60,941 nucleotides of DNA. It comes from a virus (taxonomy: Duplodnaviria > Caudoviricetes). The position numbers and the translations under genes were made by a program. Positions 1,180-16,243 of this stretch are shown here, in pieces. The number at the start of each line of letters is the position of its first letter. The first letter of the stretch is position 1. The DNA lies in the IMG/VR virus record IMGVR_UViG_3300017759_000004, positions 1 to 60,941 of that record. One strand, 5' to 3'. Under the pieces are notes generated by a model, which worked only from the letters and a program-made list of their open reading frames with translations, did not search any database and was not told the origin of the DNA.

Positions 1180-2166
1180 ATGACATCATCTACTAAAACA
1201 ACACAATACTCTATAAAAGAAATCAAAACTCTTATTGACCAAGGTAAATGGAAAAAGTTGATGGATTTTGATAATAGATATTTTGGGAGTAACTCAAGTG
1301 GGGAATGGATACTTGAGAAGACTGAACAGCATAGAGAATTTGAATATGATGAAGATCATGTTGATTATATTAGGTCTGAGTTTGATATTGATAAACTTGA
1401 TGCAAAGGTAGCAGTTAAGTTTAATACTGAAACTTACGATACAGACAAAGAAACTGGAGAGGATTCTCTACTTGCAAGAAAAGGAGACATGTTAATAGTA
1501 GGTGGAACACATACATGGTATGTAGAAATGAATGAAGGTGTTAATGTAAGTCCAAAAGGAATCAATATAGTAGATTTTGAACAAGACTTAAATGGAAGTA
1601 TTGCTAAATTAATAGCATTTGGAACTGCTATCAACAAACACAAAGTTGCAAAAAAACCTTATGATAAGAATGATGTAAAGAATGTTGTTTATCAGTATAT
1701 GGAAGACAACAGAAAAGTTTATGGAGTACCTAAGTTAAAAACGGAAAACTATGATGAAATCTTAGAACTTTTCCCTATAGTTTCTAGAGAAACGATCAAA
1801 CTTTGGGTAAGTCACCACCCTACAGTTGGTGGACGTAGAAAACCCCCTAAAAAATACACTAAGAAAAAGAAAGATGCTATACTAGAAACTTTAGAAAACT
1901 TGTATGGTAACACTCATGAAATCTTGGAACTCAGAGAACTTAGAGCATGGGCAGGTACAGGAGTATCAACTCTAATGTCTCTGGCATATCAAATGGATAC
2001 AGGAATGATACACAACAAATCTCAATTTTACGTCACATTTTATTGTTCATCTGTAACACAGGTAGAGGATTTACCTGATCTTAAGAAGAAGATAAAGAAA
2101 AGATATAAGTGGTTGGAAAAGATACTAAAAAGAACTATCGAGGTTAAATACCTACCACACAAATAA
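1180..2166 (+). CDS. Hypothetical protein, possibly ParB/Srx-like N-terminal fold
   Basis: 328-aa ORF with its own promoter. MLIVGGTHT weakly echoes the ParB hhhDGxHR motif. Lys-rich C-terminal half. ORF is solid, function weak. Confidence 0.55.
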   Translation: MTSSTKTTQYSIKEIKTLIDQGKWKKLMDFDNRYFGSNSSGEWILEKTEQHREFEYDEDHVDYIRSEFDIDKLDAKVAVKFNTETYDTDKETGEDSLLARKGDMLIVGGTHTWYVEMNEGVNVSPKGINIVDFEQDLNGSIAKLIAFGTAINKHKVAKKPYDKNDVKNVVYQYMEDNRKVYGVPKLKTENYDEILELFPIVSRETIKLWVSHHPTVGGRRKPPKKYTKKKKDAILETLENLYGNTHEILELRELRAWAGTGVSTLMSLAYQMDTGMIHNKSQFYVTFYCSSVTQVEDLPDLKKKIKKRYKWLEKILKRTIEVKYLPHK

Positions 2167-2170
2167 ACTT

Positions 2171-2178
2171 TATAAATA
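2171..2178 (+). promoter_or_regulatory. T4-type late promoter
   Basis: Exact TATAAATA, 29 bp upstream of the Gly-rich structural gene at 2208. Confidence 0.8.
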
Positions 2179-2207
2179 CCTGTGGTAAGGACTACAGGTA
2201 TTTTTTT
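2174..2207 (+). terminator. Intrinsic terminator / RBS-occluding hairpin overlapping the late promoter
   Basis: AAATACCTGTGGT (2174-2186), loop AAGG, ACTACAGGTATTT (2191-2203): 13 bp with one G:U; T7 run 2201-2207 directly before ATG. Confidence 0.7.
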
Positions 2208-3017
2208 ATGTCACAACTTAATGTAGGTACATTAAATGTAGGTACTACACAGTTCACTGGCGACTCAACAACATTAAACTCAGCACCTGCAAGTAGTATC
2301 ACAGGAATGTTAACTGGTACACCCAGTACTAACCATTCAATAATGTGGAACGGTTCAGCATGGGTTCCTCAGTTGATGGAAGGAAGATTGTTGGGGATGA
2401 ATGTATATACATCGCAGAACGGAACGTGGAACTCTAAGAGTACATCAGGTGGTAGTGGTACATGGACTAAACCAAGTGGGTGTAGTAATGTATTGGTATA
2501 TGTCACAGGTGGTGGTGGAGGTTCAAGAATCAATGATAACACCTATCGTGGTGCAGGTGGAGGTGGTGGAGCAACCGCTATTAAATGGATTGACGTGTCA
2601 GGAGTTAGTACAGTAAGTTATACTTATGGTGGTGGCGGTGGTTATGTTCGTAACGGTGGTAGAGGTGGTACAGGTGGTACTTCATCATTTGGTTCATATT
2701 GCAGTGCAACTGGTGGACAGGGTGGTCAATCAGATAACCCTCATCAGGGTGGGCCAGGGGGAAGTGCCAGTGGTGGAGACATTAATTTGCCAGGGGGAGG
2801 TGGAGAAATGTCACATGGTTCAAACAATGAAGGTGTGGCAGGTTCATCATTCTGGCATAAAGCAGGGTCATCACACCATTATTACAACAACCAAGAAGAA
2901 ATCACTCATGGACAATGGGGTTCTGGTGGTGGTCATGGTTATTATTCACAACACGATTACGCATATAACAACTCAAACGGTGGTGCGGGAGTCGTAATCG
3001 TTTACAACTACAGTTAA
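2208..3017 (+). CDS. Glycine-rich fibre/virion protein
   Basis: GTWTKPSG..VLVYVTGGGGGS...GGTSSFG...GGAGVVIVY is the Gly-rich domain common at phage fibre C-termini; late promoter upstream. Confidence 0.75.
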   Translation: MSQLNVGTLNVGTTQFTGDSTTLNSAPASSITGMLTGTPSTNHSIMWNGSAWVPQLMEGRLLGMNVYTSQNGTWNSKSTSGGSGTWTKPSGCSNVLVYVTGGGGGSRINDNTYRGAGGGGGATAIKWIDVSGVSTVSYTYGGGGGYVRNGGRGGTGGTSSFGSYCSATGGQGGQSDNPHQGGPGGSASGGDINLPGGGGEMSHGSNNEGVAGSSFWHKAGSSHHYYNNQEEITHGQWGSGGGHGYYSQHDYAYNNSNGGAGVVIVYNYS

Positions 3018-3021
3018 GAAC

Positions 3022-3381
3022 ATGAAAGCATTAGTACACGTTGAAGCAGGTCTCGTTTGTCAGTTAGTGGCAGATGGAGAAACCTTTGAAACTCATTCCG
3101 ATTACGCATGGAAAGAGTTTGATGAAACTGGATTATCTTATGTTGCAGGTACAGATAACGCACCAGAGTTTGAGTATGATAAAACAAATGATACTATCTC
3201 AAGGAAAACAATTGCACCCGAACCATATAATATGAAGAGAAAGTATGAGTACAATGAAGTGACAGAACAACTCGATCAACTCTGGCATGACATTGATGAT
3301 GGTAAACTAGGTTCAGACGCAAAGACAGGTACATGGTATCTTGGAGTCAAGAGTACGAAGGCAGCATTTCCAAAAACTTGA
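3022..3381 (+). CDS. Fibre-associated protein (tail-fibre-assembly-like partner)
   Basis: 119 aa directly after the fibre gene; C-terminal R..EY..V.EQLDQLWHDID....W...VK..K..FPK pattern typical of cyanophage fibre partners. Confidence 0.6.
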   Translation: MKALVHVEAGLVCQLVADGETFETHSDYAWKEFDETGLSYVAGTDNAPEFEYDKTNDTISRKTIAPEPYNMKRKYEYNEVTEQLDQLWHDIDDGKLGSDAKTGTWYLGVKSTKAAFPKT

Positions 3382-4393: not shown

Positions 4394-5034
4394 GTGGAAC
4401 TATTGAAATGTTTTGCCCACAGTGGTATTATCATTCTACACTATCTGACGAGTATCAAGATCAAATCAAAAGATTGTTTGACAAACATGTATATCAGGAT
4501 AGTATATACACCGCATCCCCTTGGGATTGTGATTGTTTGACTACATTTCAAGCAGAGAAAAACATGGACTTACCTTGGAATGACTGGTTAGAGTGTGTTC
4601 GCTTGGATATAGATGATGCTATTGAAAAGTTAAAACCAAAGATTGATATTGAAGTTGTACCACAGGACGCATGGGCAAACAAATATAACAAAGGACATTT
4701 TCAAGAATACCATACACATGAAGTACCATTCTGTAACTTAAGCATGGTATATTTTTATGACATTCCTGACAATGAAGATGTTGGATTCCGATTCTGGTAT
4801 GATGGTCATTCTAAATATAAGAAATCGGGATTGGCACAGGCATTTGACATGCCAGTATTTCCAAGAGTGATACCGAAGGTGAAGAAGGGTGATTTTATGA
4901 TATTTCCATCACACTACGCACATTTGGTTGCACCAAATCGTAGTGATAAACCTCGTATAACATTCTCTGGCAACCTCTATGTTGTGCCAAATAACAAAGA
5001 GTCACAACGTGACCCCACACCCCTTAAACCATAG
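4390..5034 (+). CDS. 2OG-Fe(II) oxygenase superfamily protein (TIGR02466-like)
   Basis: WANKYNKGHFQEYHTH (HxH), LSMVYF, GDFMIFPSHYAHLV, RITFSGN jelly-roll motifs. Confidence 0.85.
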   Translation: MSGTIEMFCPQWYYHSTLSDEYQDQIKRLFDKHVYQDSIYTASPWDCDCLTTFQAEKNMDLPWNDWLECVRLDIDDAIEKLKPKIDIEVVPQDAWANKYNKGHFQEYHTHEVPFCNLSMVYFYDIPDNEDVGFRFWYDGHSKYKKSGLAQAFDMPVFPRVIPKVKKGDFMIFPSHYAHLVAPNRSDKPRITFSGNLYVVPNNKESQRDPTPLKP

Positions 5035-5042
5035 TATATAAT
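4983..5042 (+). promoter_or_regulatory. Palindrome-type early promoter, copy 1 (degenerate)
   Basis: TGTGCCAAATAACAAAGAGTCACA, 30 bp, TATAAT (5037); inside the 3' end of the oxygenase gene. Confidence 0.65.
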
Positions 5043-5235
5043 GATTACACCGAACATCAACAGGTCAGTGCCTATTATTGGAGTTATTAAATCCATCAAG
5101 AAGGCACTAAAAAAATCTGTTGAAGAACCATTCCTCTATACGGAAGAGGAAGTACACAAACTCAAAAAGGCAAAACGAGATTATGAAAAAATTGAACATG
5201 AAACAAGGAAATCACAGAAAGGTGGTTTCGGATAA
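5041..5235 (+). CDS. Small basic hypothetical protein
   Basis: 64 aa, IKKAL...P.LY.EEE...LK....KGGFG pattern common in cyanophages; real start may lie downstream of 5041. Confidence 0.6.
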   Translation: MITPNINRSVPIIGVIKSIKKALKKSVEEPFLYTEEEVHKLKKAKRDYEKIEHETRKSQKGGFG

Positions 5236-5335
5236 ATTTGAAATACCTGTATATGATTGTGTACAGGAGCAAGAGGATGATTGGATATCATCTGTACTCG
5301 GTTCAGAATCAGATACACTAGACACATTATTCTAA
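5198..5335 (+). CDS. Small acidic hypothetical protein
   Basis: ATG at 5198 in frame with track ORF 5120-5335; TAATG coupling to the next ORF. Confidence 0.5.
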   Translation: MKQGNHRKVVSDKFEIPVYDCVQEQEDDWISSVLGSESDTLDTLF

Positions 5336-5451
5336 TGGCAAAAAAGAAACCTAAAAAAGAACCTAGACTATACGCAAAGGATAGGATGGAATACTTTAGA
5401 GAGTTTCACAGAGTTATCGCACCAGTTATTGTACTAAACAAAGAGGATTAA
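5335..5451 (+). CDS. Small hypothetical protein (not in ORF track)
   Basis: MAKKKPKKEPRLYAKDRMEYFREFHRVIAPVIVLNKED* (38 aa) fills the gap exactly between two ORFs. Confidence 0.55.
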   Translation: MAKKKPKKEPRLYAKDRMEYFREFHRVIAPVIVLNKED

Positions 5452-5682
5452 ATGTCAGGAGATTACGAAACCCATAATGATAGGCAACCAAACATAACCT
5501 ATGCATCAAGAGAAATGGCAACGTATCACATTTATTTGAATGATAAATGTTTATTCAAAAATCTAAATGAAGAGGAGTTCGATCTCATCTGGGATAAGAT
5601 ATATTATTCTTATTGGAGAGACGAACTATCTTATGCTGTATGTTTTGATGATGTATGTATTACTGATGACCATTCTTATTAA
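5452..5682 (+). CDS. Hypothetical cyanophage protein
   Basis: 76 aa, GAGG SD upstream, YHIYLNDKCLFKNL.EEEF...W pattern. Confidence 0.7.
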   Translation: MSGDYETHNDRQPNITYASREMATYHIYLNDKCLFKNLNEEEFDLIWDKIYYSYWRDELSYAVCFDDVCITDDHSY

Positions 5683-5879
5683 TGAACACACATAGATTAA
5701 GACTCATACCCAGAGAGGATAGTAGGGAAGCACAGGAACTATTCACTTATCACATGAAACGTGATGGGTATATGTATTGTGATGAACGATTAGATAAATG
5801 GCATGTATATAATCCCAACACAGGTATAAATTTTTGGGTTGACCCAAAGAATGACCCAATGTGGGAGGTCGTATATTAA
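5682..5879 (+). CDS. Hypothetical cyanophage protein
   Basis: 65 aa, TAATG coupling, C-terminal FWV...ND..WE motif. Confidence 0.7.
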   Translation: MNTHRLRLIPREDSREAQELFTYHMKRDGYMYCDERLDKWHVYNPNTGINFWVDPKNDPMWEVVY

Positions 5880-6047
5880 ATGGATTGTTATCGCATTTCG
5901 TGGTGGGATTGTAGCATACATGGTTACCATAATAAAAAAGGAGAATGTGTAACCAATAACATTTCAACAGGAGCAGAGATAATGAAAATGGTTAGTGATG
6001 AAGGGTGGAGTTGTACTGTTGAATGTTGTACTCAGGATGGTATCTAG
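5880..6047 (+). CDS. Small Cys-rich hypothetical protein (not in ORF track)
   Basis: MDCYRISWWDCSIHGYH...WSCTVECCTQDGI* (55 aa) starts immediately after the previous stop. Confidence 0.5.
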   Translation: MDCYRISWWDCSIHGYHNKKGECVTNNISTGAEIMKMVSDEGWSCTVECCTQDGI

Positions 6048-6166
6048 GCATAAATTCTTGTTACTAAGTGACTGAAATGTGATGATATCAAAATAAATAG
6101 TGGTAGACTTAAGGAGAACAAGATGAACCCAAACTCTTGTATTATGAGTTAACTTACGAGGTAACA

Positions 6167-6334
6167 ATGCACAACTTAATGAATCACAAACAGACACCAG
6201 AATATTACAACTTCTCTTCTGAAACACCCAACAATGATCTTTGGAACGACTATTTTGATTGTATAGTTGATTGTTCAGAACAAACCCATAATCAATCCTG
6301 TCGTAGGATTTGTCGAGATATGATTCCAGATTAG
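6167..6334 (+). CDS. Small twin-CX3C protein
   Basis: ATG 6167 with GAGGT SD (track start 6137 is TTG); NDYFDCIVDC...CRRICR motif resembles small picocyanobacterial/cyanophage proteins. Confidence 0.7.
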   Translation: MHNLMNHKQTPEYYNFSSETPNNDLWNDYFDCIVDCSEQTHNQSCRRICRDMIPD

Positions 6335-6389
6335 TCCAGTTACCAAACTGTCACAACCCCTTGCAAAAGGGGTTTTTTTATTGTATAAT
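6332..6389 (+). promoter_or_regulatory. Palindrome-type early promoter, copy 2
   Basis: TAGTCCAGTTACCAAACTGTCACA; TTGCAA (6361), 17 bp, TATAAT (6384). Confidence 0.75.
6355..6379 (+). terminator. Intrinsic terminator embedded in promoter copy 2
   Basis: AACCCCTT-GCAA-AAGGGGTT stem with GNRA loop, then T run. Confidence 0.85.
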
Positions 6390-6422
6390 AATAATATTGA
6401 GACGAAAGTCATTTATTTTATT

Positions 6423-7676
6423 ATGCAGTTAAGACCCCATCAGCAAAGAGCATTTAACGCAATGCAAGAGACACCATATGGTCAGGTCATTATTCCTACA
6501 GGTGGTGGTAAAACTTATATTATGATCGCTGATGCTATGAAGCAATTTCAGTTACCAAGATCACAAACTATTGTAGTAGTCGCACCTCGTATATTACTAG
6601 CAAACCAGTTATGTGCAGAGTTCACAGAGTTTATCACAGAACAGAACTCAAAGTTTGGTCTTGATATTGCTCATGTTCACTCAGGAGAGACTCATCACTT
6701 CAGTACAACTAATCAGTTTGAGTTGAATGAATGGGTTAACAATAGCACAAAGAATATTATTATCTTTACAACATATCATTCACTACACAAAGTATGTAAT
6801 GCAGTTGATGTAGAAGTTGATACTATTTACTATGATGAAGCACATAATGGCACATCAAAGAATTTCTTTGAAGCGGTTGCTAGAATGTCATTTGGTGTAG
6901 CATATCGTAGGTTCGCATTTACAGCAACACCTAAGTTAGGTAGAGGTGCATCTAAAACTAGAGGTATGAACAATACTAAAGTATGGGGTAACACTCTATG
7001 TAATGTAAAAGCACAGGAACTTATTGATAGTGGTGCTATATTACCGCCTAAAGTTGTTCCTTTTACATGTAAGACAGAGAGAAACAAAGAGAATGCACAT
7101 GAGGTTGATGCACAGAACTTAATGGACATGTTAACATCATTCGGAGACAATGGACATAAAGTATTAGTTGCTAGTCCTAGCACTAGAGTTCTAAACAATA
7201 TGTTATCAAGAACATTCATACTTGATTGGTTATCTGATAATGGATATGATGTACTACATATTACATCAAAGTATGGTGCTATCATCAATGGAAAGAAGGT
7301 AGGTAGAGAAGAGTTCTTTGATACTCTTACTAAGTTTGGCAATGATAATAATCGTAAGGTTATTGTATTTCACTACAGTATATTATCTGAAGGTATCAAT
7401 GTCAATGGACTTACTCATACAATACTATTGAGAAATTTACCAACTATCGAAATGGCACAAACTATTGGTAGAGTTATCAGAGTTCACAAAGATGATAGAG
7501 ACGCTATCTCTAATGGTCAGTTGACTATTGGTAACTGGCAGTTCTATAAGAAATCAAGTGGACAGATCACAGTACCAACAGAGAACAAGTATGGAGATAA
7601 GATTGCTAGAAGACTAGAGTCTATTGTTGATTACATATTCAAGGAAGGATTACCCCCTATAGCATATGCATCATGA
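6423..7676 (+). CDS. Superfamily 2 (DExH, ResIII-like) helicase/ATPase
   Basis: Q motif LRPHQ, Walker A PTGGGKT, Ia VVAPR, Walker B DEAH, III FTAT, V ILSEGIN, VI QTIGRVIR. Start moved to ATG 6423 because 6381 lies within the promoter. Confidence 0.92.
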   Translation: MQLRPHQQRAFNAMQETPYGQVIIPTGGGKTYIMIADAMKQFQLPRSQTIVVVAPRILLANQLCAEFTEFITEQNSKFGLDIAHVHSGETHHFSTTNQFELNEWVNNSTKNIIIFTTYHSLHKVCNAVDVEVDTIYYDEAHNGTSKNFFEAVARMSFGVAYRRFAFTATPKLGRGASKTRGMNNTKVWGNTLCNVKAQELIDSGAILPPKVVPFTCKTERNKENAHEVDAQNLMDMLTSFGDNGHKVLVASPSTRVLNNMLSRTFILDWLSDNGYDVLHITSKYGAIINGKKVGREEFFDTLTKFGNDNNRKVIVFHYSILSEGINVNGLTHTILLRNLPTIEMAQTIGRVIRVHKDDRDAISNGQLTIGNWQFYKKSSGQITVPTENKYGDKIARRLESIVDYIFKEGLPPIAYAS

Positions 7677-8191
7677 CAGCAAAAAAAGGAACACATAGTT
7701 TTTCAAGTGGAAAACAAACTAAACATGAGAACAAACATATATCCCTAGTCCAAGAGATATATGATGAGTTTAAATGTCATGATGATAAGTGGGATAAAAG
7801 AAAAATGGTAACAGTTGCAGAGTTAATAGGAGAAGAAAATGTTAACTACGCTAGACACATGACAGGTAACTCTAATGAAATTTATAGTGATGGTGGAGTT
7901 ATATTTTATGATGGGAAAATCGTAGGATTATGTGAAGACAAATATCAACAAGATCATAGGAATGCATGTGAGAGAGCATGTAAGTATCAAGTGTATATGG
8001 ATTTAAAACCAAACCAGATATTTTTATCATGTGGTGGTGTGGGATTTGAGTTTGATACAAATAGACATGGTGGTGGTGCAACAGGCACATTATATGATAT
8101 AATGAAGTATCGAGGATATTCCATTGCTATGAATGAGACAGAACAAGAGTTCAAAACAAGATTAAGAAACTGGTTTAAAGGATTATTATGA
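7673..8191 (+). CDS. Putative PD-(D/E)xK restriction endonuclease, EcoRI/MunI-like
   Basis: SDGG...CEDKYQ...NACERACK parallels EcoRI PDGG...AEAKHQ...NAIERSHK; lies between helicase and MTase with ATGA overlaps on both sides. Confidence 0.65.
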   Translation: MTAKKGTHSFSSGKQTKHENKHISLVQEIYDEFKCHDDKWDKRKMVTVAELIGEENVNYARHMTGNSNEIYSDGGVIFYDGKIVGLCEDKYQQDHRNACERACKYQVYMDLKPNQIFLSCGGVGFEFDTNRHGGGATGTLYDIMKYRGYSIAMNETEQEFKTRLRNWFKGLL

Positions 8192-9051
8192 AACCCCTTT
8201 TCATGTGGGCAGGTGGTAAGAATAAGATGATGAAGCATTATCAACCTTACTTGCCTAGTTACGTCACTCACTATCATGAACCATTTTTCGGTGGTGGTGC
8301 TATGTTCATATATGTAATGAAAAGGTACAAACCGAAGTATGTATTGATTAATGATATTAACCCAGACATCATGAGAATATACAGAATGATAAGAGATAAT
8401 CATTCTCAGTTTATCAAACACATGGACGAATATCAAGAGAAGTATATACCACTCAGCAAGGAAGATAGAAAGAAATATTATTTCGAGGTCAGACATGGAC
8501 ACGCATTTGATTATAAAGGATGGAGTGAAGTTAAGGAAGCATCAACACTATACTTCTTAATGAAAACAGGTTTCAATGGCATATATCAGATCAATAAGAA
8601 TACTAATGGACGCTATGGTACACCTAGTGGACTTCTTAATCAAAAGGATACTGTTTACGATAAAGAGATTGTTAAGTGGTGGAGTGAAGCATTGCAAGGT
8701 GCAGAGATAACAAGTAAAGACTGGAAAGAAGTTAAAGCACCCCCATCTAAGGTGTATGCATTCCATTTTTTCGACCCCCCTTATAGGACATCTTATGCTG
8801 ATTATGGCAATGCTTTTAATGATAATGATTTAATAGAGTTGATAAAGTATGCTGATACATGTTCACAGGTATTTCTTGCTAACAGAGCAGACGATGATTT
8901 CTTTGAAAAGCAAAACCATAAACTAAACGTAGCACATTTTGACATAACATACACAGCAGGGAGAAGAAAACAAATAGATGATAAGTTTGAAGCAAAGAAG
9001 GCAAGAGAGATTCTACTATACAATGTCAAGGAAGGTGTGACAGTTGTATAA
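8188..9051 (+). CDS. D12-class (Dam-like, group alpha) N6-adenine DNA methyltransferase
   Basis: KPLFMWAGGK, EPFFGGGA (motif I), INDIN, FNGIY, FFDPPY (motif IV), terminal REILLYN. Target site not determinable. Confidence 0.93.
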   Translation: MKPLFMWAGGKNKMMKHYQPYLPSYVTHYHEPFFGGGAMFIYVMKRYKPKYVLINDINPDIMRIYRMIRDNHSQFIKHMDEYQEKYIPLSKEDRKKYYFEVRHGHAFDYKGWSEVKEASTLYFLMKTGFNGIYQINKNTNGRYGTPSGLLNQKDTVYDKEIVKWWSEALQGAEITSKDWKEVKAPPSKVYAFHFFDPPYRTSYADYGNAFNDNDLIELIKYADTCSQVFLANRADDDFFEKQNHKLNVAHFDITYTAGRRKQIDDKFEAKKAREILLYNVKEGVTVV

Positions 9052-9095
9052 GTGGCACAAGAGTGGTTGCATTGGGTTGCAATATGGTTTATATT
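9036..9095 (+). promoter_or_regulatory. Palindrome-type early promoter, copy 3
   Basis: TGTGACAGTTGTATAAGTGGCACA (contains the MTase stop); TTGCAT (9067), 17 bp, TATATT (9090). Confidence 0.75.
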
Positions 9096-9101
9096 AATAA
9101 T

Positions 9102-9194
9102 GTCGAAACAAACCAACGTAAAACTTTCAAGGTAACGGATACCCAGAGGAATACGTTTTTAAATCGAACTTAAGTAGTTGAGTTTTGTTTCGAC
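9102..9194 (+). ncRNA. Candidate structured RNA A
   Basis: Starts at the predicted TSS; GTCGAAACAAA (9102-9112) pairs perfectly with TTTGTTTCGAC (9184-9194); inner AACGTA/TACGTT and GGTA/TACC helices; no + ORF of gene size. Confidence 0.55.
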
Positions 9195-9202
9195 CCATCA
9201 CT

Positions 9203-9346
9203 GGGCATTGCCACACTCTACCGAACATTGCGTTGGAGCATCTAGTTCAACCGAGAACATGTAAGACCCATCCCTAGGCATTAAGCATACGAACTTTAAA
9301 ACACCAACTTTAATTAGATGTGGCAGTTGCAATCTTATGTAAGTCC
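9203..9346 (+). ncRNA. Candidate structured RNA B
   Basis: ATTGCCA (9207-9213)/TGGCAGT (9321-9327), CATCTAGTT (9239-9247)/AATTAGATG (9312-9320), GGGC/GTCC ends; ORF-free in an otherwise gene-dense region. Confidence 0.45.
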
Positions 9347-9368
9347 TAATCCTTTTATTATTTGAAAC

Positions 9369-9554
9369 ATGGTAAACTACAAACAACTTATTGAACTTGA
9401 TGGATACATCAATATCTGGGAAGTAATACCAGAGGATGAGCATTCACATATTTCTAACAAGATATGGGAAGCACTTGATCGGGCGGGTATAACCTTATCA
9501 CAGGATGCAGAGTTATCAGTCAGAGTATATGACAGTATAGAAAGTGGCACATAG
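9369..9554 (+). CDS. Small acidic early protein
   Basis: 61 aa; last codons are encoded by palindrome copy 4. Confidence 0.65.
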   Translation: MVNYKQLIELDGYINIWEVIPEDEHSHISNKIWEALDRAGITLSQDAELSVRVYDSIESGT

Positions 9555-9586
9555 TTGCCCCATCTACCTATCATATTCATTATAAT
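9528..9586 (+). promoter_or_regulatory. Palindrome-type early promoter, copy 4
   Basis: TATGACAGTATAGAAAGTGGCACA, 29 bp, TATAAT (9581). Confidence 0.75.
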
Positions 9587-9608
9587 AAGAATACAGCAAA
9601 ACATTATT

Positions 9609-9923
9609 ATGTACGACACATCAAAACGTATCGATGCTACTCTACTTGAAGGTTCACATGACATCAAGTTATCTCGCAGAGAGTTAGGTATCCTACTCAG
9701 ACATATGTCTATCATGTTCGCAAGTATAGACGAACCAAACAGAAACACATGGTACGAAGACGATTTTGGTAAGGATGCAATAGTATCTTTATATCGCAAA
9801 GCACTTGCTACTTATGAAGCAAACTATGATGATAAATCTGATCTAGAGAGAAAAGATTATGCCACTCAACCATTCTACTGGAATCATCAAAAACATCACA
9901 AAACAGCATTTCCTTTATTCTAA
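9609..9923 (+). CDS. Hypothetical early protein
   Basis: Start reassigned to ATG 9609 after the conserved AACATTATTATG leader. Confidence 0.7.
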   Translation: MYDTSKRIDATLLEGSHDIKLSRRELGILLRHMSIMFASIDEPNRNTWYEDDFGKDAIVSLYRKALATYEANYDDKSDLERKDYATQPFYWNHQKHHKTAFPLF

Positions 9924-10105
9924 TGAAACATAACATAGGTTTAACATACGAACAACTATCTGACATCATTTACTATCTTGATTGGAAGTTAATGGAGATC
10001 AGGGAAGCAGGATGTGATTTAGAATATCCTGATGTAGTCGATACTCTTAAACAACTAGAGGACTACAAACATCAACTAGCAGTATCTCATCAACTATACA
10101 GATAA
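9923..10105 (+). CDS. Small early protein
   Basis: 60 aa, TAATG coupling. Confidence 0.65.
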   Translation: MKHNIGLTYEQLSDIIYYLDWKLMEIREAGCDLEYPDVVDTLKQLEDYKHQLAVSHQLYR

Positions 10106-10315
10106 ATGAACTATCAAGTAACAGAGATTGAACTCTACTTATGTGAAGTTGGAGACGGAGACCCCGATTTACAGTTTACACCCGAAGAGGAGTATGTCAT
10201 GCACCAAAGGTGTCTAGGTAGATGGACAGCATATAATGAAGATGACCTAAGAAATCGAATATTTGATTTTATCGGTTATCATGCTGAACATTTAAAATAC
10301 GAGGTAAGACCATAA
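10106..10315 (+). CDS. Small early protein
   Basis: 69 aa; YQVTEIE...G.W.A..EDDL...I....G pattern common in cyanophages; loosely resembles 12406-12609. Confidence 0.7.
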   Translation: MNYQVTEIELYLCEVGDGDPDLQFTPEEEYVMHQRCLGRWTAYNEDDLRNRIFDFIGYHAEHLKYEVRP

Positions 10316-10431
10316 TGGAAGATGAATACTTTGACCCTGATCTAGGTTTAACATACACAGACAACTTTGATGAGTATGATGTGCCAGTTGAAGAAGTGTC
10401 ACATGACCAGTTGCAAGATCAGGAATCATAA
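10315..10431 (+). CDS. Very acidic micro-protein (not in ORF track)
   Basis: MEDEYFDPDLGLTYTDNFDEYDVPVEEVSHDQLQDQES*; GAGGT SD; reads through palindrome copy 5. Confidence 0.5.
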   Translation: MEDEYFDPDLGLTYTDNFDEYDVPVEEVSHDQLQDQES

Positions 10432-10440
10432 TACTATAAT
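10380..10440 (+). promoter_or_regulatory. Palindrome-type early promoter, copy 5
   Basis: TGTGCCAGTTGAAGAAGTGTCACA, 31 bp, TATAAT (10435). Confidence 0.8.
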
Positions 10441-10463
10441 AAGAACATACAACAAACATCATT

Positions 10464-10670
10464 ATGGATTTACAACTCGAAAGAGAATATGCAATCGACA
10501 ATATGGGCGATAGCATAGGTCAAGCAATCGAAAAAGCAACAGACCAAAAAAGATTAGATGATGCAATGTCATTATATCAAGAGTGGTGTGTTTTAGATAA
10601 CATTGCTGAACAAGATGACTACCAGTTCATGTTCATGAGAAACTTTACTTTACCAGAGGGGTTAAACTAA
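10464..10670 (+). CDS. Small acidic early protein
   Basis: 68 aa, first gene after the ACAAACATCATTATG leader. Confidence 0.7.
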   Translation: MDLQLEREYAIDNMGDSIGQAIEKATDQKRLDDAMSLYQEWCVLDNIAEQDDYQFMFMRNFTLPEGLN

Positions 10671-10906
10671 TGGATGTAGCATTCGCAGACTGGTTAACAC
10701 ATTGCCCAGACAAACTAAAATTTGCTCTAGAGTATGTTGATCTCAGGGCAGATATTGCTAACGTGATCGAAACTTATGAATATGAGTTCGCTTCAATCGA
10801 AGTAGAAAAGGAAGTAACTGAAGCAGTACTCAACAAACTAATCAATCAAGATTGGTCAGAACAGAATGAATACATATCAGATCTAATCGATCAGGAGATA
10901 GCATAA
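10670..10906 (+). CDS. Small very acidic early protein
   Basis: 78 aa, GAGG SD, TAATG coupling. Confidence 0.7.
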   Translation: MDVAFADWLTHCPDKLKFALEYVDLRADIANVIETYEYEFASIEVEKEVTEAVLNKLINQDWSEQNEYISDLIDQEIA

Positions 10907-11052
10907 TGTTAGAACTAACACCCGAACAACTTAGATACATGTTAAAATGTTTAGACTTTCATTATAGTGAGAACTATGATAGAAAAGAGGAGTTGATAAT
11001 GATTAACTCTAGCATTGCTAAACTTATCCAACATGAACTAAGTGACAGTTAA
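10906..11052 (+). CDS. Small early protein (not in ORF track)
   Basis: MLELTPEQLRYMLKCLDFHY...HELSDS* (48 aa); AGGAG SD; stop inside palindrome copy 6. Confidence 0.6.
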   Translation: MLELTPEQLRYMLKCLDFHYSENYDRKEELIMINSSIAKLIQHELSDS

Positions 11053-11102
11053 CAAACTGGCACATTGTTCCCCCATTCCACTCTATTATGATCTATTATA
11101 AT
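11041..11102 (+). promoter_or_regulatory. Palindrome-type early promoter, copy 6
   Basis: AGTGACAGTTAACAAACTGGCACA; TATTATAAT at 11094-11102. Confidence 0.8.
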
Positions 11103-11125
11103 AGTATAAACAAACAAACATCATT

Positions 11126-11308
11126 ATGACCAGAGAAGAGTACGACCTAATCTATTCAGCATTCAGATCATATAGAGTCTATATGACAGATGCAGACGAA
11201 GTATTATCTGAGAAAATCTTAGATGATCTATTTTATCCAGAGTTCGATAAACTAACACCTGTTGAGTTAGTTCCATCAATCTCAGTAAAACTACCAGAGG
11301 TAAACTAA
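11126..11308 (+). CDS. Small acidic early protein
   Basis: 60 aa after the conserved leader. Confidence 0.7.
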   Translation: MTREEYDLIYSAFRSYRVYMTDADEVLSEKILDDLFYPEFDKLTPVELVPSISVKLPEVN

Positions 11309-11309
11309 A

Positions 11310-11525
11310 ATGTGTAACAACGATCTTAAACAATGGAAAGTAGGAACAGAGGGAGAGACATGGGATTATGGTTACGTCCAGAATCCTAAACAGTTTATTG
11401 AAGAGGTTTTTGAAATCGCTTTCGGGGATGATGCCATCAATCGTAACTATTCTATGGGCGAAGTTTTAGATAGACTTATGGAATTTAGTGACGATGCACT
11501 ACGTTACAATGGAGAGTTAGATTAA
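11310..11525 (+). CDS. Small acidic early protein
   Basis: 71 aa, GGAGG SD; FIEEVFEIAFGDDAINR motif common in cyanophages. Confidence 0.75.
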   Translation: MCNNDLKQWKVGTEGETWDYGYVQNPKQFIEEVFEIAFGDDAINRNYSMGEVLDRLMEFSDDALRYNGELD

Positions 11526-11701
11526 TGATAAATGTACAGATTACATTCGATGAAGCATATCAGTTTATTAAACTGTATGACATACTCAGGGATATGGATA
11601 TGCCTTTAACACCAAAACAAATGAGTGTATTTGAAAAGATACAAACAGGAGACTACCTAGTCAAAACTCATCCTAGTTCACAACATTATCAAGGAGCGTA
11701 A
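11525..11701 (+). CDS. Small early protein (not in ORF track)
   Basis: MINVQITFDEAYQFIKLYDILRDMD...QGA* (58 aa), GGAG SD, TAATG coupling. Confidence 0.6.
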   Translation: MINVQITFDEAYQFIKLYDILRDMDMPLTPKQMSVFEKIQTGDYLVKTHPSSQHYQGA

Positions 11702-11702
11702 A

Positions 11703-11894
11703 ATGCAAGTAGTTATTACACCAAAAAACTTATTCTCACTTGAAACTTGTGTGGACTGTAGTAAAAACTGTAGTATCGGGTCAGGTCGATTTGTGAATAG
11801 GTATGCATATTATGGAGACGAAGTAGAGGGATGGCGGTGTGGTCATTGTGCTGAAGAACTTGATGCATTTATAGAGGAGAACATACAATGTTAA
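11703..11894 (+). CDS. Small CxxC...CxxC (putative zinc-binding) protein
   Basis: CVDC...GSGRFVNR...CGHC; AAGGAG SD. Confidence 0.7.
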   Translation: MQVVITPKNLFSLETCVDCSKNCSIGSGRFVNRYAYYGDEVEGWRCGHCAEELDAFIEENIQC

Positions 11895-12055
11895 CTGATA
11901 ATGAACTTATCTCAATAGTTCGCACTCTAGACAAATATTGTGAGCAACCAAATATTGCTGACGATATTGAAGAAGAGTTGATGAGAATATCTTTTAAGAT
12001 AGAGGATATCTTAATCAATCGAGGTGTGGAAGTCAATAGCATATGTGACAGTTAA
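11888..12055 (+). CDS. Small early protein (not in ORF track)
   Basis: MLTDNELISIVRTLDKYCEQ...NSICDS* (55 aa), GAGGAG SD; stop inside palindrome copy 7. Confidence 0.6.
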   Translation: MLTDNELISIVRTLDKYCEQPNIADDIEEELMRISFKIEDILINRGVEVNSICDS

Positions 12056-12102
12056 TTATGTGTCACACACTTCCACGCATCGGGTATAAAATCCCTTATA
12101 AT
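12044..12102 (+). promoter_or_regulatory. Palindrome-type early promoter, copy 7
   Basis: TGTGACAGTTAATTATGTGTCACA, 29 bp, TATAAT (12097). Confidence 0.8.
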
Positions 12103-12127
12103 AAGGATAACGACAACAAACATTATT

Positions 12128-12412
12128 ATGAGACCAACAGACCTAGTAACAGCAAAAAGACAAATCGATGATTTCGTTGATTATGTTGATTCATTCTATG
12201 GTCAGAATGACCCTTTATACCCTTTAGTTTATCAAGGTCAACCATTAACAAAGACTGATATTCTAACAGCAACAGTTATCTACCTCGACCAGTGCAACAA
12301 CGATGATTTCGAGTTTTGTACATGGGGTGATGGTGATTCACTTGACAGAGAGAGAGTAAGAGACATTCTACTAGACAAACTAAACTATGATCACAAAGAC
12401 GGTACATGGTAA
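12128..12412 (+). CDS. Conserved-looking cyanophage early protein
   Basis: 94 aa; FVDYV.SFYG...LYP...GDSLDRERVRDI motif. Confidence 0.75.
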   Translation: MRPTDLVTAKRQIDDFVDYVDSFYGQNDPLYPLVYQGQPLTKTDILTATVIYLDQCNNDDFEFCTWGDGDSLDRERVRDILLDKLNYDHKDGTW

Positions 12413-12609
12413 TGCTATTAGTTACTCACATAGACGTTTATGAAAAACTGGATGACGATATCCAGTTTAAGATAGACAATGGTCTCGGATGTTGGACATC
12501 AAAAGATCATGAACTATGGGATGATGTACAAAACTACATTCAACCCTATACTCTCAAAAATGTAGAGTATGAAAAAAACAGACCACACGCTCTAACGTCA
12601 TTCCTATGA
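12406..12609 (+). CDS. Small early protein
   Basis: 67 aa (or from ATG 12412); ends RPHALTSFL; ATGA overlap. Confidence 0.65.
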   Translation: MVMLLVTHIDVYEKLDDDIQFKIDNGLGCWTSKDHELWDDVQNYIQPYTLKNVEYEKNRPHALTSFL

Positions 12610-12788
12610 AAAGATCAACTTTTACAATATTCAATGAGTGGTTAAACACTTGCCCCTATGGGGATTATACAACTGGCGGTATGGACTACAACCCAAAAAC
12701 TAAAATGTGGGAAGTATCGTTTAAAGTACCGAATGTTTCAAAAGCACTCAAAGATTCTTATACACCATTTGAATATCAAAATCAATAG
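12606..12788 (+). CDS. Small early protein
   Basis: 60 aa with F.EWL..CP motif, also echoed at the N-terminus of 10670-10906. Confidence 0.65.
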   Translation: MKRSTFTIFNEWLNTCPYGDYTTGGMDYNPKTKMWEVSFKVPNVSKALKDSYTPFEYQNQ

Positions 12789-12792
12789 GCAT

Positions 12793-12851
12793 TGTGCCAG
12801 TTATTAAAGTGTCACATAGTTACCCCATCTGGGGATACAACCCACTATAAT
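12793..12851 (+). promoter_or_regulatory. Palindrome-type early promoter, copy 8
   Basis: TGTGCCAGTTATTAAAGTGTCACA, CCCCATCTGGGG hairpin, TATAAT (12846). Confidence 0.85.
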
Positions 12852-12876
12852 AATAGTATAAGCAACAAACATTATT

Positions 12877-13119
12877 ATGAACTCAACAGCAACTTACACA
12901 GAACCAACAAACAGAATCAAACAGAGAATCCTATTTGATGACAACTTACAGAATATGGCATGTTGTTGTGCTGACTGGGCAGAGTATGTTATCGAGATCG
13001 AAGAGTGGGGAATCTACAAGTTAGGCGGAGTTGATTTTGATGATTTAACTTCTGACGATATTGTTAAACTTGATGAGTTTATCAAGTCAGAAAACGGTTA
13101 CATCAGAGAGGAGGTTTAA
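12877..13119 (+). CDS. Small acidic early protein
   Basis: 80 aa after the conserved leader. Confidence 0.7.
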   Translation: MNSTATYTEPTNRIKQRILFDDNLQNMACCCADWAEYVIEIEEWGIYKLGGVDFDDLTSDDIVKLDEFIKSENGYIREEV

Positions 13120-13122
13120 GCA

Positions 13123-13302
13123 ATGTCAACTAAACCATTTAACTGGACTATTCCATCATTTAACGATACAGAGCAAAAATGGCGAGAGTATCACGAGGAA
13201 TACGAAGAGAAATTTACGACTGACATATATCAGGCACATATTGCAATCGCACAAAAATTTCCATTCATTTATAATGAGTATGGACTACCGAGGGAGGACT
13301 AG
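13123..13302 (+). CDS. Small early protein (not in ORF track)
   Basis: MSTKPFNWTIPSFNDTEQKWREYHEEY...GLPRED* (59 aa) with GGAGGT SD; preferred over track ORF 13061-13309. Confidence 0.65.
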   Translation: MSTKPFNWTIPSFNDTEQKWREYHEEYEEKFTTDIYQAHIAIAQKFPFIYNEYGLPRED

Positions 13303-13313
13303 TCAATGAAAAA

Positions 13314-13371
13314 TGTGCCACTTTATAAAGTGTCCACTTATGCCACACTTGTGGTCATAATCCTTTATAAT
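13314..13371 (+). promoter_or_regulatory. Palindrome-type early promoter, copy 9
   Basis: TGTGCCACTTTATAAAGTGTCCAC, GCCACA-CT-TGTGGT hairpin, TATAAT (13366). Confidence 0.8.
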
Positions 13372-13403
13372 ATTAGTATAAACACAGTTCAAACAACTTT
13401 ATT

Positions 13404-13568
13404 ATGAGTCATTCAGCAAACACAGAAATCCTAGAAAACTTATACGAGGAGATTCTAGACGATCTTACAGCAAAAAACATCCAACTAGGTATTATGTTAC
13501 CTATGGAACACCTCGAAGCAATAGCATCAAAGCATGCTAACCAAAAATTTGAGATGATGTGCCAATAA
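13404..13568 (+). CDS. Small early protein (not in ORF track)
   Basis: MSHSANTEILENLYEEILDDL...KFEMMCQ* (54 aa); single-gene module, stop inside palindrome copy 10. Confidence 0.7.
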   Translation: MSHSANTEILENLYEEILDDLTAKNIQLGIMLPMEHLEAIASKHANQKFEMMCQ

Positions 13569-13616
13569 ACAAAGTGGCACACAGTATCCCCATCTGGGGA
13601 TACAATCCACTATAAT
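13558..13616 (+). promoter_or_regulatory. Palindrome-type early promoter, copy 10
   Basis: TGTGCCAATAAACAAAGTGGCACA, perfect GTATCCCC-ATCT-GGGGATAC hairpin, TATAAT (13611). Confidence 0.85.
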
Positions 13617-13652
13617 AATAGTATAACAAACATTCAACAACTTTTATTCATT

Positions 13653-13862
13653 ATGTCAGGTATTTACGGAAGCAACAAAAAAGGTCTAAACATTCAAGTA
13701 ACTGATTCTCAGTACGATTTTCTTTATGACCTAGTTATGTCAGCATACGATTTGGATATTCCAGATCAAAAAGGTTGGGATACTCAAACCTTTGATAATC
13801 TAGTTGATAATGTTTGCAACGCAAAGCAAACTTATTTAACTAATGACGTAAAGGGAGTTTAA
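13653..13862 (+). CDS. Small early protein
   Basis: 69 aa after A/C-rich leader. Confidence 0.7.
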   Translation: MSGIYGSNKKGLNIQVTDSQYDFLYDLVMSAYDLDIPDQKGWDTQTFDNLVDNVCNAKQTYLTNDVKGV

Positions 13863-13866
13863 TCAA

Positions 13867-14202
13867 ATGAGAACTTGGATTTTTGGAAACTATGTAAACG
13901 ACCCGCATGGGAAGTTTATGCCATTACAGACTATTGAGTCAGAATTCTATGGAAGACATTTTTTCATAGATCTCGCATTTGAGTTTATATCAGCACCTAG
14001 TCTCAAGTCAGGTGGATATGATGAGAGTCAACTGGATTATGTTGCTAACTGGACAGACATGGAAGGTCTCAACATAGGGGAACTAATGAACATATACAGA
14101 GATCTTACATGGAAGGAAAATAATAAAAATCAAGAGAAGGCACATTCTGATATGTGCGAATATATGGAAGCAGTTGAAAATGGCGAGGTCACATATCTAT
14201 GA
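13867..14202 (+). CDS. Hypothetical early protein
   Basis: 111 aa, GGGAG SD, ATGA overlap. Confidence 0.7.
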   Translation: MRTWIFGNYVNDPHGKFMPLQTIESEFYGRHFFIDLAFEFISAPSLKSGGYDESQLDYVANWTDMEGLNIGELMNIYRDLTWKENNKNQEKAHSDMCEYMEAVENGEVTYL

Positions 14203-14414
14203 AGACTATACAACGATACAAGAAACCTGACTCTATTGGAGTCGGGGATAATGTACTCTTTAAAAATAAAGAGTATCAAGTCTTGATAAACTACATTAAA
14301 GGAGATCAGGATAGGAAGGGATTTATACCAACTGAAAACTTTACTATCCTTATTAATGATAGAGGTAAAAGAGTTTATTGTCATAACTTTAAAGAGTTGG
14401 AGATTCTAACATAA
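14199..14414 (+). CDS. Small early protein (possibly SH3-like beta fold)
   Basis: 71 aa, IGVGDNVLFKN..Y.V pattern; GAGGT SD. Confidence 0.65.
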   Translation: MKTIQRYKKPDSIGVGDNVLFKNKEYQVLINYIKGDQDRKGFIPTENFTILINDRGKRVYCHNFKELEILT

Positions 14415-14566
14415 TGGAATATAATCAAAAGTTATGGAAGTCTAAAAGATGGGGAGATTATAAAAAATATCAAGATACTTCTTACATCTATTTTTCCCAA
14501 ATCGAGCAGGGTTATTTAATCAGGCAAAAGACTAAACAACTTAAACAACACTATGAAAACTTTTAA
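14414..14566 (+). CDS. Small basic protein (not in ORF track)
   Basis: MEYNQKLWKSKRWGDYKKY...HYENF* (50 aa), TAATG coupling. Confidence 0.5.
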   Translation: MEYNQKLWKSKRWGDYKKYQDTSYIYFSQIEQGYLIRQKTKQLKQHYENF

Positions 14567-14735
14567 AGAGATCTCTTACTTGAGAAAAGAAACAAGTTTC
14601 AAAGATCATGGGTATATGTTCTTCTCTAATATAGAACAGAAACCTATGATAATGTCAACCGATATTGTGCCACTTGTTAAACTGTCACACTCGTCCCCCA
14701 TTTGTGGGTCGGACGCCACTATAATAGAGGTATAA
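14553..14735 (+). CDS. Small hypothetical protein reading through promoter copy 11
   Basis: 60 aa; the last third is encoded by the regulatory element. Confidence 0.4.
   Translation: MKTFKEISYLRKETSFKDHGYMFFSNIEQKPMIMSTDIVPLVKLSHSSPICGSDATIIEV
14666..14725 (+). promoter_or_regulatory. Palindrome-type early promoter, copy 11
   Basis: TGTGCCACTTGTTAAACTGTCACA, 30 bp, TATAAT (14720). Confidence 0.85.
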
Positions 14736-14750
14736 GCAACAAAGATTATT

Positions 14751-15197
14751 ATGACACACACAATGGTAAAAACAGACATCTACGGTTATGTAAGTCAACT
14801 ATGTGATTCTCTCGAAAGGAACTATAAAGAGTATCGTATCAGAATGCATGAAACAAACTTCACAAGTTTTAAGTCTCAAAACAGAACAGACTTATCAGAC
14901 TATGCACAGGAGCAACTTCGCAATATTGAGAATGGAACTGAAAAGTTAATGAAATTTGCATGCTACGAGGGTCGCAAGTATTTCAAGGTCGTTCAACAGG
15001 ATTTCAGAAATGGCGAGTATAGAGACGCTAGTGTGCATGCTTTCATTAATAAGGAGACAGGCGAGGTTTTCAAACCTGCAGGTTATAACAAACCAGCAAA
15101 AGGAGTTCGCTTCAATCTTGCAGACGTTACACACAGAAATTTCTTATTCCAGTCAAAAAATGTAGATTGGGCAGGTGGTTATCTATACAGGAGATAA
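14751..15197 (+). CDS. Conserved T4-like phage hypothetical protein
   Basis: GRKYFKV...SVHAFI...TGEVFKPA....PAKGVRFNL...W.GGYLY, a widespread phage family of unknown function. Confidence 0.85.
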   Translation: MTHTMVKTDIYGYVSQLCDSLERNYKEYRIRMHETNFTSFKSQNRTDLSDYAQEQLRNIENGTEKLMKFACYEGRKYFKVVQQDFRNGEYRDASVHAFINKETGEVFKPAGYNKPAKGVRFNLADVTHRNFLFQSKNVDWAGGYLYRR

Positions 15198-15233
15198 CCC
15201 CATTATTCTAACACTTATCCGCACTACACGCAA

Positions 15234-15455
15234 ATGAACCTAAATCAATCCGCACCTATACCGCATTTAAGTTTTAACAACTATGATGAGTTAACAGAAC
15301 TGTATCAAGCAGTCGAGTATATTCCAGAGGATCTAGAAGCAGAAATGGAACAATATGGAGCAATGACAGACGAGCAAAAAGCACTTATTGACATTATACA
15401 CAGATTAAAGACTATACATGATAACTATATAAACCAGTTACTTCACTTGCAATGA
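15234..15455 (+). CDS. Small early protein
   Basis: 73 aa, ATGA overlap with next. Confidence 0.6.
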   Translation: MNLNQSAPIPHLSFNNYDELTELYQAVEYIPEDLEAEMEQYGAMTDEQKALIDIIHRLKTIHDNYINQLLHLQ

Positions 15456-15664
15456 GTTGGAACTTAATACAATGGTCAGAACAAACATCTAACATTATGG
15501 CAACAATGACCTATCAAGATTTACTGGAAGAGTTACAACAATTAAACCCTAATCAGTTAAAGAAAAATGTTGCTATCTATGATGAACATTTAGATGCTAA
15601 GTGTTTAGCACATAACAAACTTATTTTCTTTGATAACAACGAGTTTCCCTATATTAAGATATGA
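15452..15664 (+). CDS. Small early protein
   Basis: MTYQDLLEELQQL...QL...VAIYD motif; real start may be an internal ATG. Confidence 0.7.
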   Translation: MSWNLIQWSEQTSNIMATMTYQDLLEELQQLNPNQLKKNVAIYDEHLDAKCLAHNKLIFFDNNEFPYIKI

Positions 15665-15927
15665 AAGTAACATTTAATAGGGGAGACTATTATCAATCAA
15701 AAAATGATATAGGTTACATAGATTTCATATGTAATGATTATATTACTCTATGTGTTAGAGAGATACAAAGAGATAACGAACAGGCAAAAGGAAGCAGACT
15801 AAATTATATTCAAGTTAAGGTATTAGTATACAAAAATGAGTATGAAGCAATGACTAAATTAGAACAACCAAACAGATTTGCAAATAAGAGTAATAAGAAC
15901 TCTTTAACTTTGGATGATTGGAGTTAA
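15661..15927 (+). CDS. Hypothetical cyanophage protein
   Basis: G.IDFIC..YITLCVRE...VKVLVY motif; ATGA overlap. Confidence 0.7.
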   Translation: MKVTFNRGDYYQSKNDIGYIDFICNDYITLCVREIQRDNEQAKGSRLNYIQVKVLVYKNEYEAMTKLEQPNRFANKSNKNSLTLDDWS

Positions 15928-15933
15928 TTTAGC

Positions 15934-16208: not shown

Positions 16209-16243
16209 ATGACTGTAAGGAATGAAAAGGTTAACTGTAACTT

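Follow-up and report, generated by a model that had tools for sequence, protein, structure and literature searches.

Type IIP restriction enzymes with AATT at the center of their sites include EcoRI (G^AATTC; PDB 1ERI, 1CKQ and 2OXV; Pfam family PF02963) and MunI (C^AATTG; PDB 1D02; PF11407), and enzymes of the MluCI/Tsp509I type recognize ^AATT. Chlorella viruses, phage P1 and some prophages are cases in which a virus carries a nuclease together with a protective methylase, possibly for use against host or competitor DNA. Here, we analyze three genes, for a helicase, a small nuclease and a DNA methylase, at positions 6423 to 9051 of a viral genome record of 60,941 nucleotides (nt) (IMG/VR record IMGVR_UViG_3300017759_000004, Caudoviricetes; the whole of this stretch is referred to as the window). 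The source phage is a marine, T4-like cyanomyovirus, and the helicase region shares about 80% DNA identity with myoviruses of Prochlorococcus and Synechococcus. We propose, with a probability of about 0.62, that the nuclease and methylase genes constitute a restriction-modification (R-M) pair in which a miniature relative of EcoRI cuts AATT and a Dam-family methylase protects the same site. Unlike the R-M systems of chlorella viruses, P1 and prophages, this predicted pair resides in a lytic T4-like cyanomyovirus, involves a new family of miniature nucleases, and occurs in a genome that has been purged of its presumed site.

The 172-amino acid (aa) product of the middle gene contains the motifs SDGG, EDKYQ and NACER, starting at residues 72, 88 and 97, respectively. 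An earlier note on this DNA had compared these with motifs of EcoRI, and the comparison was sound: EcoRI chains in the PDB contain PDGG, EAKHQ and GNAIERSHK. These chains are 261–277 residues long and the middle protein is, as had been pointed out, much shorter. Searching the PDB with this single sequence returned chance matches only (all E-values, E, ≥0.79). Seven close homologs were identified from 13 candidates, and the wider family comprises 44 representative clusters at E ≤1e-3, of which 23 reach 1e-10 and two reach 1e-30. Nearly all members are about 170 aa long. We aligned the window nuclease with 42 homologs (alignment A2, 43 sequences), leaving out short fragments (P0009, P0010, P0042, P0045 and P0046) and near-identical or truncated sequences (P0001, P0006 and P0007). 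Invariant across A2 are D73, K90, Q92, N97 and R101; G6, E19, G75, A98 and G122 are nearly invariant, and E88 is present in the window nuclease and in most members.

When the A2 profile was compared with all PDB sequences, only EcoRI chains fell below E 0.02 (8e-4 to 1.2e-2, including 1qps at 8e-4, 1ckq at 9.5e-4 and 2oxv at 1.1e-3), and the next unrelated match was serotransferrin, at E 1.2. Profile positions 23–90 align to EcoRI residues 38–116, covering PDGG and EAKHQ, and positions 91–125 align to residues 138–174, covering GNAIERSHK. Because the alignment falls into these two pieces, the 21 EcoRI residues between EAKHQ and GNAIER (117–137), the ‘inner arm’ of EcoRI, have no counterpart in the mini nuclease. 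The order of motifs (PDGG, ExKxQ, NAxER) is shared. A predicted catalytic D...ExK center, formed by D73, E88 and K90, aligns to D91, E111 and K113 of EcoRI, and Q92, N97, A98, E100 and R101 correspond to Q115, N141, A142, E144 and R145. The NACER segment (97–101) lies opposite NAIER, and the glycine that precedes the latter in EcoRI is R96 in the window nuclease. Thus, the equivalents of EcoRI D91, K113, Q115, N141 and R145 are all invariant in the family.

Several of these residues read the inner part of the EcoRI site. In the review PMC4081073, the inner AT and TA pairs are described as bonding to the Arg145 side chain and to the main chain of Asn141 and Ala142, and Ala142 as wedging the central step of the site; a title in the reference list of that article describes Gln115 as critical for the inner thymidine. 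In the mini family, the equivalents of these inner-site contact residues are invariant or, in the case of A98, nearly so. The positions immediately preceding N97 are variable, which leaves the family with no conserved reader of an outer base pair. The same review raises a possible ‘mosaicism (EcoRI, MunI and MluCI)’.

Structure prediction is in agreement with the profile matches. AlphaFold2 gave a model with pLDDT 92.7 and pTM 0.86 when supplied with the 43 sequences of A2, and pLDDT 38.2 when supplied with only eight close sequences. In a Foldseek search of the PDB, EcoRI ranks first (1qri, E 1.3e-4, TMq 0.59), followed by BstEII (2e-4), and MunI is found at 1.2e-2. The best match in BFVD is an uncharacterised protein of cyanophage S-RIM2 (E 4e-6). 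The modeled protein has the EcoRI-type alpha/beta restriction-enzyme fold. The PD-(D/E)xK fold that the earlier note had supposed is therefore predicted with high confidence, in EcoRI/MunI form, and the profile finds EcoRI independently. EcoRI is the best match by both approaches; the MunI family PF11407 was not matched by the window nuclease. We treat the mini nuclease family as a new, distant and miniature branch of the EcoRI/MunI superfamily rather than as part of PF02963.

The nuclease gene is strongly linked to the methylase gene. Pattern scans seeded on the nuclease only yielded five viral and 41 metagenome loci, and a tblastn re-screen of these 46 recovered the nuclease in all but one. 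In 36 of the resulting 45 nuclease loci, the window methylase has a homolog downstream, encoded on the same strand. The gap between the two genes is at most 52 nt in 34 of the 36 paired loci, and 1.1–1.3 kb of inserted genes separate them in the others (L022 and L024). The pair is present in 18 of 21 clusters (≥80% nuclease identity), and linkage to the one methylase subfamily holds through rearrangements, down to 29–35% nuclease identity. Two loci without a D12 methylase match have only 51 and 133 nt of downstream sequence (L018 and L019), and two others (L021 and L036) end inside a gene resembling the one inserted in L022. In L023, the Dam-family methylase is absent and a gene for a beta-class N6_N4 methylase (PF01555, 8.3e-44; 1011–1766) lies upstream of the helicase and nuclease genes, so that the methylase class has been swapped. 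L031 belongs to the L023 lineage, with its upstream side cut off.

Linkage was also found from the methylase side. Scanning with A5, an alignment of 15 partner methylases, identified 279 confirmed viral methylase loci, of which the best 80 (49–100% identity) were analyzed. An upstream open reading frame (ORF) matches the A2 profile in 53 of these best 80. In 39 cases it abuts the methylase gene, in 13 it lies 0.9–1.4 kb away, and in one (L091) it shares the methylase frame: an S-RIM2-like nuclease and the methylase occupy 473 codons (1878–3296) with no stop between them, which could be a genuine fusion or could stem from a sequencing error. Three methylase loci without an A2 match (L134, L135 and L136) have in its place a similar ORF of 161–226 aa that reaches the methylase start. 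Of the two that were scanned against Pfam, the L135 ORF passes the cut-off for MunI (PF11407; 26.5 bits vs 25) and the L134 ORF scores below it (16.4 bits); the latter carries GNAHER in an hhalign alignment (probability 44). These ORFs constitute a putative second lineage of mini nucleases with the same partner methylase. The L134 and L135 ORFs (1998–2501 and 2019–2501) are 161–168 aa long, and the L136 counterpart ends near position 2495. Co-occurrence with methylases, on which the earlier proposal depended, is thus strong in both directions. The nuclease rarely occurs without a methylase and the methylase sometimes occurs alone, which is the usual pattern of R-M systems.

Searches for further relatives define the scope of these counts. 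A tblastn search of the phage collection, cultured carriers included, returned nothing for the window nuclease, P0015 or P0017. Distant members P0033, P0029, P0023 and P0044, searched singly, gave nothing in viral contigs, so the context counts omit the distant half of the family. A scan of bacterial and archaeal genomes found no nuclease relative; it used one peptide pattern and does not imply absence from cellular genomes.

The methylase is confidently assigned to PF02086 (E 4.3e-32, 112.3 bits vs a cut-off of 22) and contains the sequence FFDPPY. It passes the threshold for the TIGR00571 ‘dam’ subfamily (139.8 bits vs 114.85) and scores far below that of the E. coli Dam equivalog model NF008152 (46.6 bits vs 441). 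The 15 partner methylases of A5 share a conserved loop, FNGIxQINKNTNGRYGTPSGLL, with a two-residue insertion after FNG, so that this loop differs in both length and sequence from those of DpnM and E. coli Dam. Among cultured phages, methylases with about 60% identity to that of the window are all from S-RIM2 or S-BM1, and the next matches listed are at about 30–37%. The partner methylases make up a subfamily of their own, encountered mostly alongside the mini nuclease, and are not generic orphan Dam enzymes. The phage location and the Dam/D12-family partner are further differences from EcoRI; the EcoRI methylase, M.EcoRI, belongs to a different family (PF13651).

Relatives of both genes occur in cultured cyanophages. 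A nuclease homolog is carried by 65 cultured-phage records, comprising S-RIM2 isolates, S-BM1 and S-CREM2, and the S-RIM2 and S-BM1 homologs match A2 with hhalign probabilities of 97.5 and 97.4. These hypothetical proteins and gp11 of S-CREM2 belong to the same family as the window nuclease, and their genes are adjacent or close to methylase genes of the same subfamily. They differ from the window in gene order and in lacking a tblastn match from the window nuclease. The order in S-BM1 is nuclease, methylase (overlapping) and helicase. In S-RIM2 R1_1999, nuclease and methylase are separated by a gene of 351 aa that weakly matches DUF6551, and S-CREM2 has two intervening genes. The S-CREM2 homolog is already annotated in GenBank as ‘restriction endonuclease EcoRI’. 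Those passages of the S-CREM2 paper (PMC10665884) that contain the words restriction, EcoRI, methylase or methyltransferase do not mention the nuclease. In our literature searches, we came across no article that describes an EcoRI-like nuclease from a cyanophage or the avoidance of AATT by cyanophages.

The window genome is depleted in AATT. We counted 162 occurrences, versus 382.5 from a Markov estimate and 591 from base composition, which places AATT among the most under-represented four-base words. Expected counts were also obtained by shuffling synonymous codons within 25 window ORFs. By this measure, the observed-to-expected ratio for AATT is 0.34 (z −19.5), and control words are close to expectation (TTAA 0.96, ATAT 1.12, TATA 1.02, GATC 1.08). 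Some sites persist, as the earlier note reported: GAATTC is present at 13942 (and at 3484 and 47978) and CAATTG occurs six times. All ten NAATTN flank classes are depleted in the window (ratios of 0 to 0.53). The corresponding ranges are 0.06 to 0.27 in S-RIM2 and 0.55 to 1.10 in P-RSM4, which lacks the nuclease. Depletion of every flank class led us to reject a six-base target, whether GAATTC or CAATTG, and to favor the four-base word AATT.

We compared AATT ratios in 16 genome samples of 40–61 kb each. The ratio is at or below 0.51 in seven of nine nuclease carriers, versus one of seven non-carriers (three phages without the nuclease and four with the methylase only), a comparison tempered by the small number of samples and by their partial relatedness by descent. 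The depleted carriers are the window, S-RIM2 (0.17), G005 (0.19), G002 and G006 (both 0.44), G004 (0.50) and S-CREM2 (0.51). Ratios are higher in the non-carriers P-RSM4 (0.85), P-SSM4 and P-SSM3 (both 0.71) and in the methylase-only genomes G007 (0.87), G009 (1.00) and G010 (0.83). Outside these samples, G011, a record with a MunI-like ORF, has a ratio of 0.65. We rate AATT as the nuclease target at somewhat better than even odds. The depletion in the window suggests a four-base specificity for AATT like that of MluCI/Tsp509I-type enzymes.

The window is also nearly devoid of AGCT (7 observed vs 124 expected), CCGG (0 vs 22), GCGC and GGCC. With the exception of S-CREM2, these words are depleted in carriers and non-carriers (P-RSM4 and P-SSM4) alike. 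Their loss looks like general avoidance of host restriction sites, with no bearing on the three-gene unit.

EcoRI homology, predicted fold and methylase linkage all support the compact R-M-like system that the earlier note had put forward, and that the nuclease and methylase genes form a phage-borne type II R-M pair, whatever their site, is quite probable. In the mechanism that we propose, the mini nuclease, as a homodimer, would act on palindromic AATT irrespective of the outer base pair, and would cut unmethylated DNA in a Mg-dependent reaction. The Dam-family methylase would add an N6-methyl group to an adenine of the same site and so protect phage DNA, and genome-wide removal of AATT would lower the remaining risk of self-cleavage. 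The pair would share a transcript with the helicase gene upstream, starting at a sigma-70-type promoter, and expression would be early. Because the incoming phage genome would already be methylated, the nuclease would be free to attack the host chromosome or unmethylated co-infecting phages. A bolder version, which we regard as tentative and rather doubtful, is that lytic marine cyanophages wield a minimal four-base AATT enzyme offensively, shredding both the unmethylated host chromosome and rival phages inside the infected cell, and protect themselves doubly, by the methylase and by a codon-level purge of AATT. Phages that retain the methylase alone or the purge alone (for example G008) might then be immune bystanders in an arms race between phages.

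Several observations weigh against an AATT-specific R-M pair. As a single sequence, the window nuclease matches no Pfam family at E up to 1. The PF02963 gathering threshold is missed, with one of the 43 family members matching at E 0.011, and the mini nuclease is placed outside PF02963 because of this. The equivalent of EcoRI E144 (E100) is Q in some close homologs, including P0002 and P0004. Three nuclease loci (L008, L016 and L049) have no DNA methylase in their available flanks. AATT is still present in the methylase-less loci examined, with 16 occurrences within 5 kb of L008. Conversely, no nuclease match was found in 27 of the best 80 methylase loci; these include L134, L135 and L136 with their different small ORF, in seven the methylase is directly preceded by a DUF6551-like gene or by unknown genes encoding about 290–316 aa, and the remainder look like solitary methylases. 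Two carriers, G001 (0.87) and G003 (0.91), are not depleted in AATT. G008 (loci L153 and L154; estimated to be 90% complete) has the methylase and no detected nuclease, and its AATT ratio of 0.14 is as low as those of the strongest carriers. Lastly, the nearest methylases of solved structure are GATC enzymes (DpnM, 2.4e-23; E. coli Dam, 1.6e-8) and, taken with the TIGR00571 assignment, this means that the window methylase may have GATC specificity.

The last point is the basis for an alternative in which the genes form an R-M pair with GATC or another Dam-type site, NAxER being retained for structural or catalytic coupling and not for reading AATT. The two undepleted carriers would fit such a pair. 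We consider it unlikely, as GATC is not depleted in the window, the E. coli Dam equivalog model is missed by a wide margin, and the loop after FNG is unlike that of DpnM and E. coli Dam and yet conserved among the partner methylases. Moreover, ORFs that match MunI in Pfam, one of them with GNAHER, also precede members of this methylase subfamily, and AATT depletion tracks carriage of the nuclease. A role outside restriction, as a selfish or homing-type enzyme or in repair or recombination within a variable hot spot, is suggested by the changing gene order (helicase–nuclease–methylase in the window, nuclease–methylase–helicase in S-BM1, insertions in S-RIM2) and by P-RSM4, where the helicase gene is directly followed by a different dam gene with no nuclease between. 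The three nuclease loci without a nearby methylase point the same way. This too is improbable: linkage to one methylase subfamily survives rearrangement and extensive nuclease divergence, one contig shows an in-frame fusion, type IIP restriction enzymes head both the fold and the profile matches, and the residues equivalent to base contacts in EcoRI are invariant. Genome-wide avoidance of AATT would not be expected for the long, unique target of a homing enzyme.

The helicase could also be thought to join the pair in an ATP-dependent three-part machine of type I, type III or ISP-like kind, with the helicase required for cutting. All three genes are coupled by ATGA overlaps, the best Pfam match of the helicase is ResIII (1.6e-21; 77.3 bits vs 22.5, with DEAD at 1.2e-13 and Helicase_C at 7.6e-7, 29.8 bits vs 23.5), and helicase homologs occur near the pair in varied arrangements (the window clade, L022, L023, L048, S-RIM2 and S-BM1). 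EcoRI and MunI, in contrast, need no ATPase. The protein matches phrog_16 ‘DNA helicase’ at 1.5e-71 and is the ‘T4-GC 36’ helicase of cyanomyoviruses, which also occurs in phages that lack the nuclease. Three loci with 3–4 kb of flank on both sides (L009, L034 and L042) have the pair and no helicase homolog, and in the complete 193-kb record G001, which likewise carries the pair, nothing matches the helicase at E 0.001. A three-part machine is thus very improbable. Because non-carriers have the helicase and the complete carrier G001 lacks it, we conclude that the helicase is a common cyanomyovirus gene that is translationally coupled here and is not an obligate partner of the nuclease. Set against these alternatives, the R-M pair with an AATT-cutting mini nuclease and a protecting Dam-family methylase remains the best explanation as a whole.

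The features of the locus are listed in Table 1. Both gene junctions read ATGA, confirming the two overlaps noted previously. The unit had also been described as bounded exactly by copies of a palindrome, which is approximately correct: the downstream copy is perfect, and the upstream copy is degenerate, with an intact right arm only. The palindrome, TGTGnCA-N10-TGnCACA, has ten copies at ≤1 mismatch in the window, versus 0.36 expected, all within 4983–16428. A small hairpin and a TATAAT box come after several of the copies, and the palindrome resembles a recurring regulatory element placed between the small genes of the interval. The hairpin upstream of the helicase gene is terminator-like and probably ends the preceding unit. 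No Rfam family was matched within 5900–9700.

Table 1. Features of the helicase, nuclease and methylase locus, with positions in the window.
Feature	Position	Strand	Comment
Early-region palindrome, degenerate copy with intact right arm ACTGTCACA	~6332-6355	+	Upstream boundary; not among the 10 matches at ≤1 mismatch
Terminator-like hairpin, 8-pair stem followed by T run, TTTTTATT	6355-6374	+	
Candidate sigma-70-like promoter, TTGCAA-17-TATAAT	6361-6389	+	10/12 consensus matches; consensus match only
SF2 helicase, 417 aa	6423-7676	+	ATG 6423 to stop 7676; ResIII, DEAD and Helicase_C domains
Predicted miniature EcoRI-like PD-(D/E)xK nuclease, 172 aa	7673-8191	+	Profile, fold and motifs
Dam-family (D12 class) N6-adenine DNA methylase, 287 aa, presumed cognate protector	8188-9051	+	DPPY motif
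Perfect palindrome copy, TGTGACAGTTGTATAAGTGGCACA	9036-9059	+	Downstream boundary; overlaps the methylase stop codon

Also apparent are some features of neighboring DNA. The roughly 300 bases past the methylase gene in the window (9052–9368) contain no sizeable ORF on the + strand and have no Rfam match at E 0.1. An optional gene of about 330–350 aa lies between nuclease and methylase in several loci (L002:2437-3489, L022:2773-3756 and L066:1470-2501), with a weak DUF6551 match in the S-RIM2 and L066 copies. Its presence differs among S-RIM2 isolates, and in some records the nuclease match overlaps the methylase annotation. A gene for a protein of about 290 aa that matches no Pfam family recurs upstream of the methylase subfamily, directly or one gene away (L087:1634-2497, with similar ORFs in L122, L073, L084, L092 and L105); no mini-EcoRI gene was found within the L087 flank. 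In S-BM1, a 135-aa ORF past the helicase (L003:5658-6062) matches PD-(D/E)XK_5 weakly (E 0.0012) and does not reach the cut-off.

Should the mini nuclease prove to cut AATT, no known restriction enzyme of EcoRI type would be much smaller. The enzyme would represent a natural experiment, in which the EcoRI reader of the inner site operates without the stretch between the catalytic and recognition motifs. This could provide insight into how specificity is built in the EcoRI family, and possibly a compact reagent. It would also mean that cyanophages abundant in the ocean have their own restriction systems. Phage ‘Dam’ genes are usually interpreted as counter-defense, as in a recent cyanophage paper (PMC12801897). 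Cyanophage restriction systems could affect breakdown of host DNA, competition among co-infecting phages, and the composition of phage genomes. The cultured carriers S-RIM2, S-BM1 and S-CREM2 make the idea directly testable.

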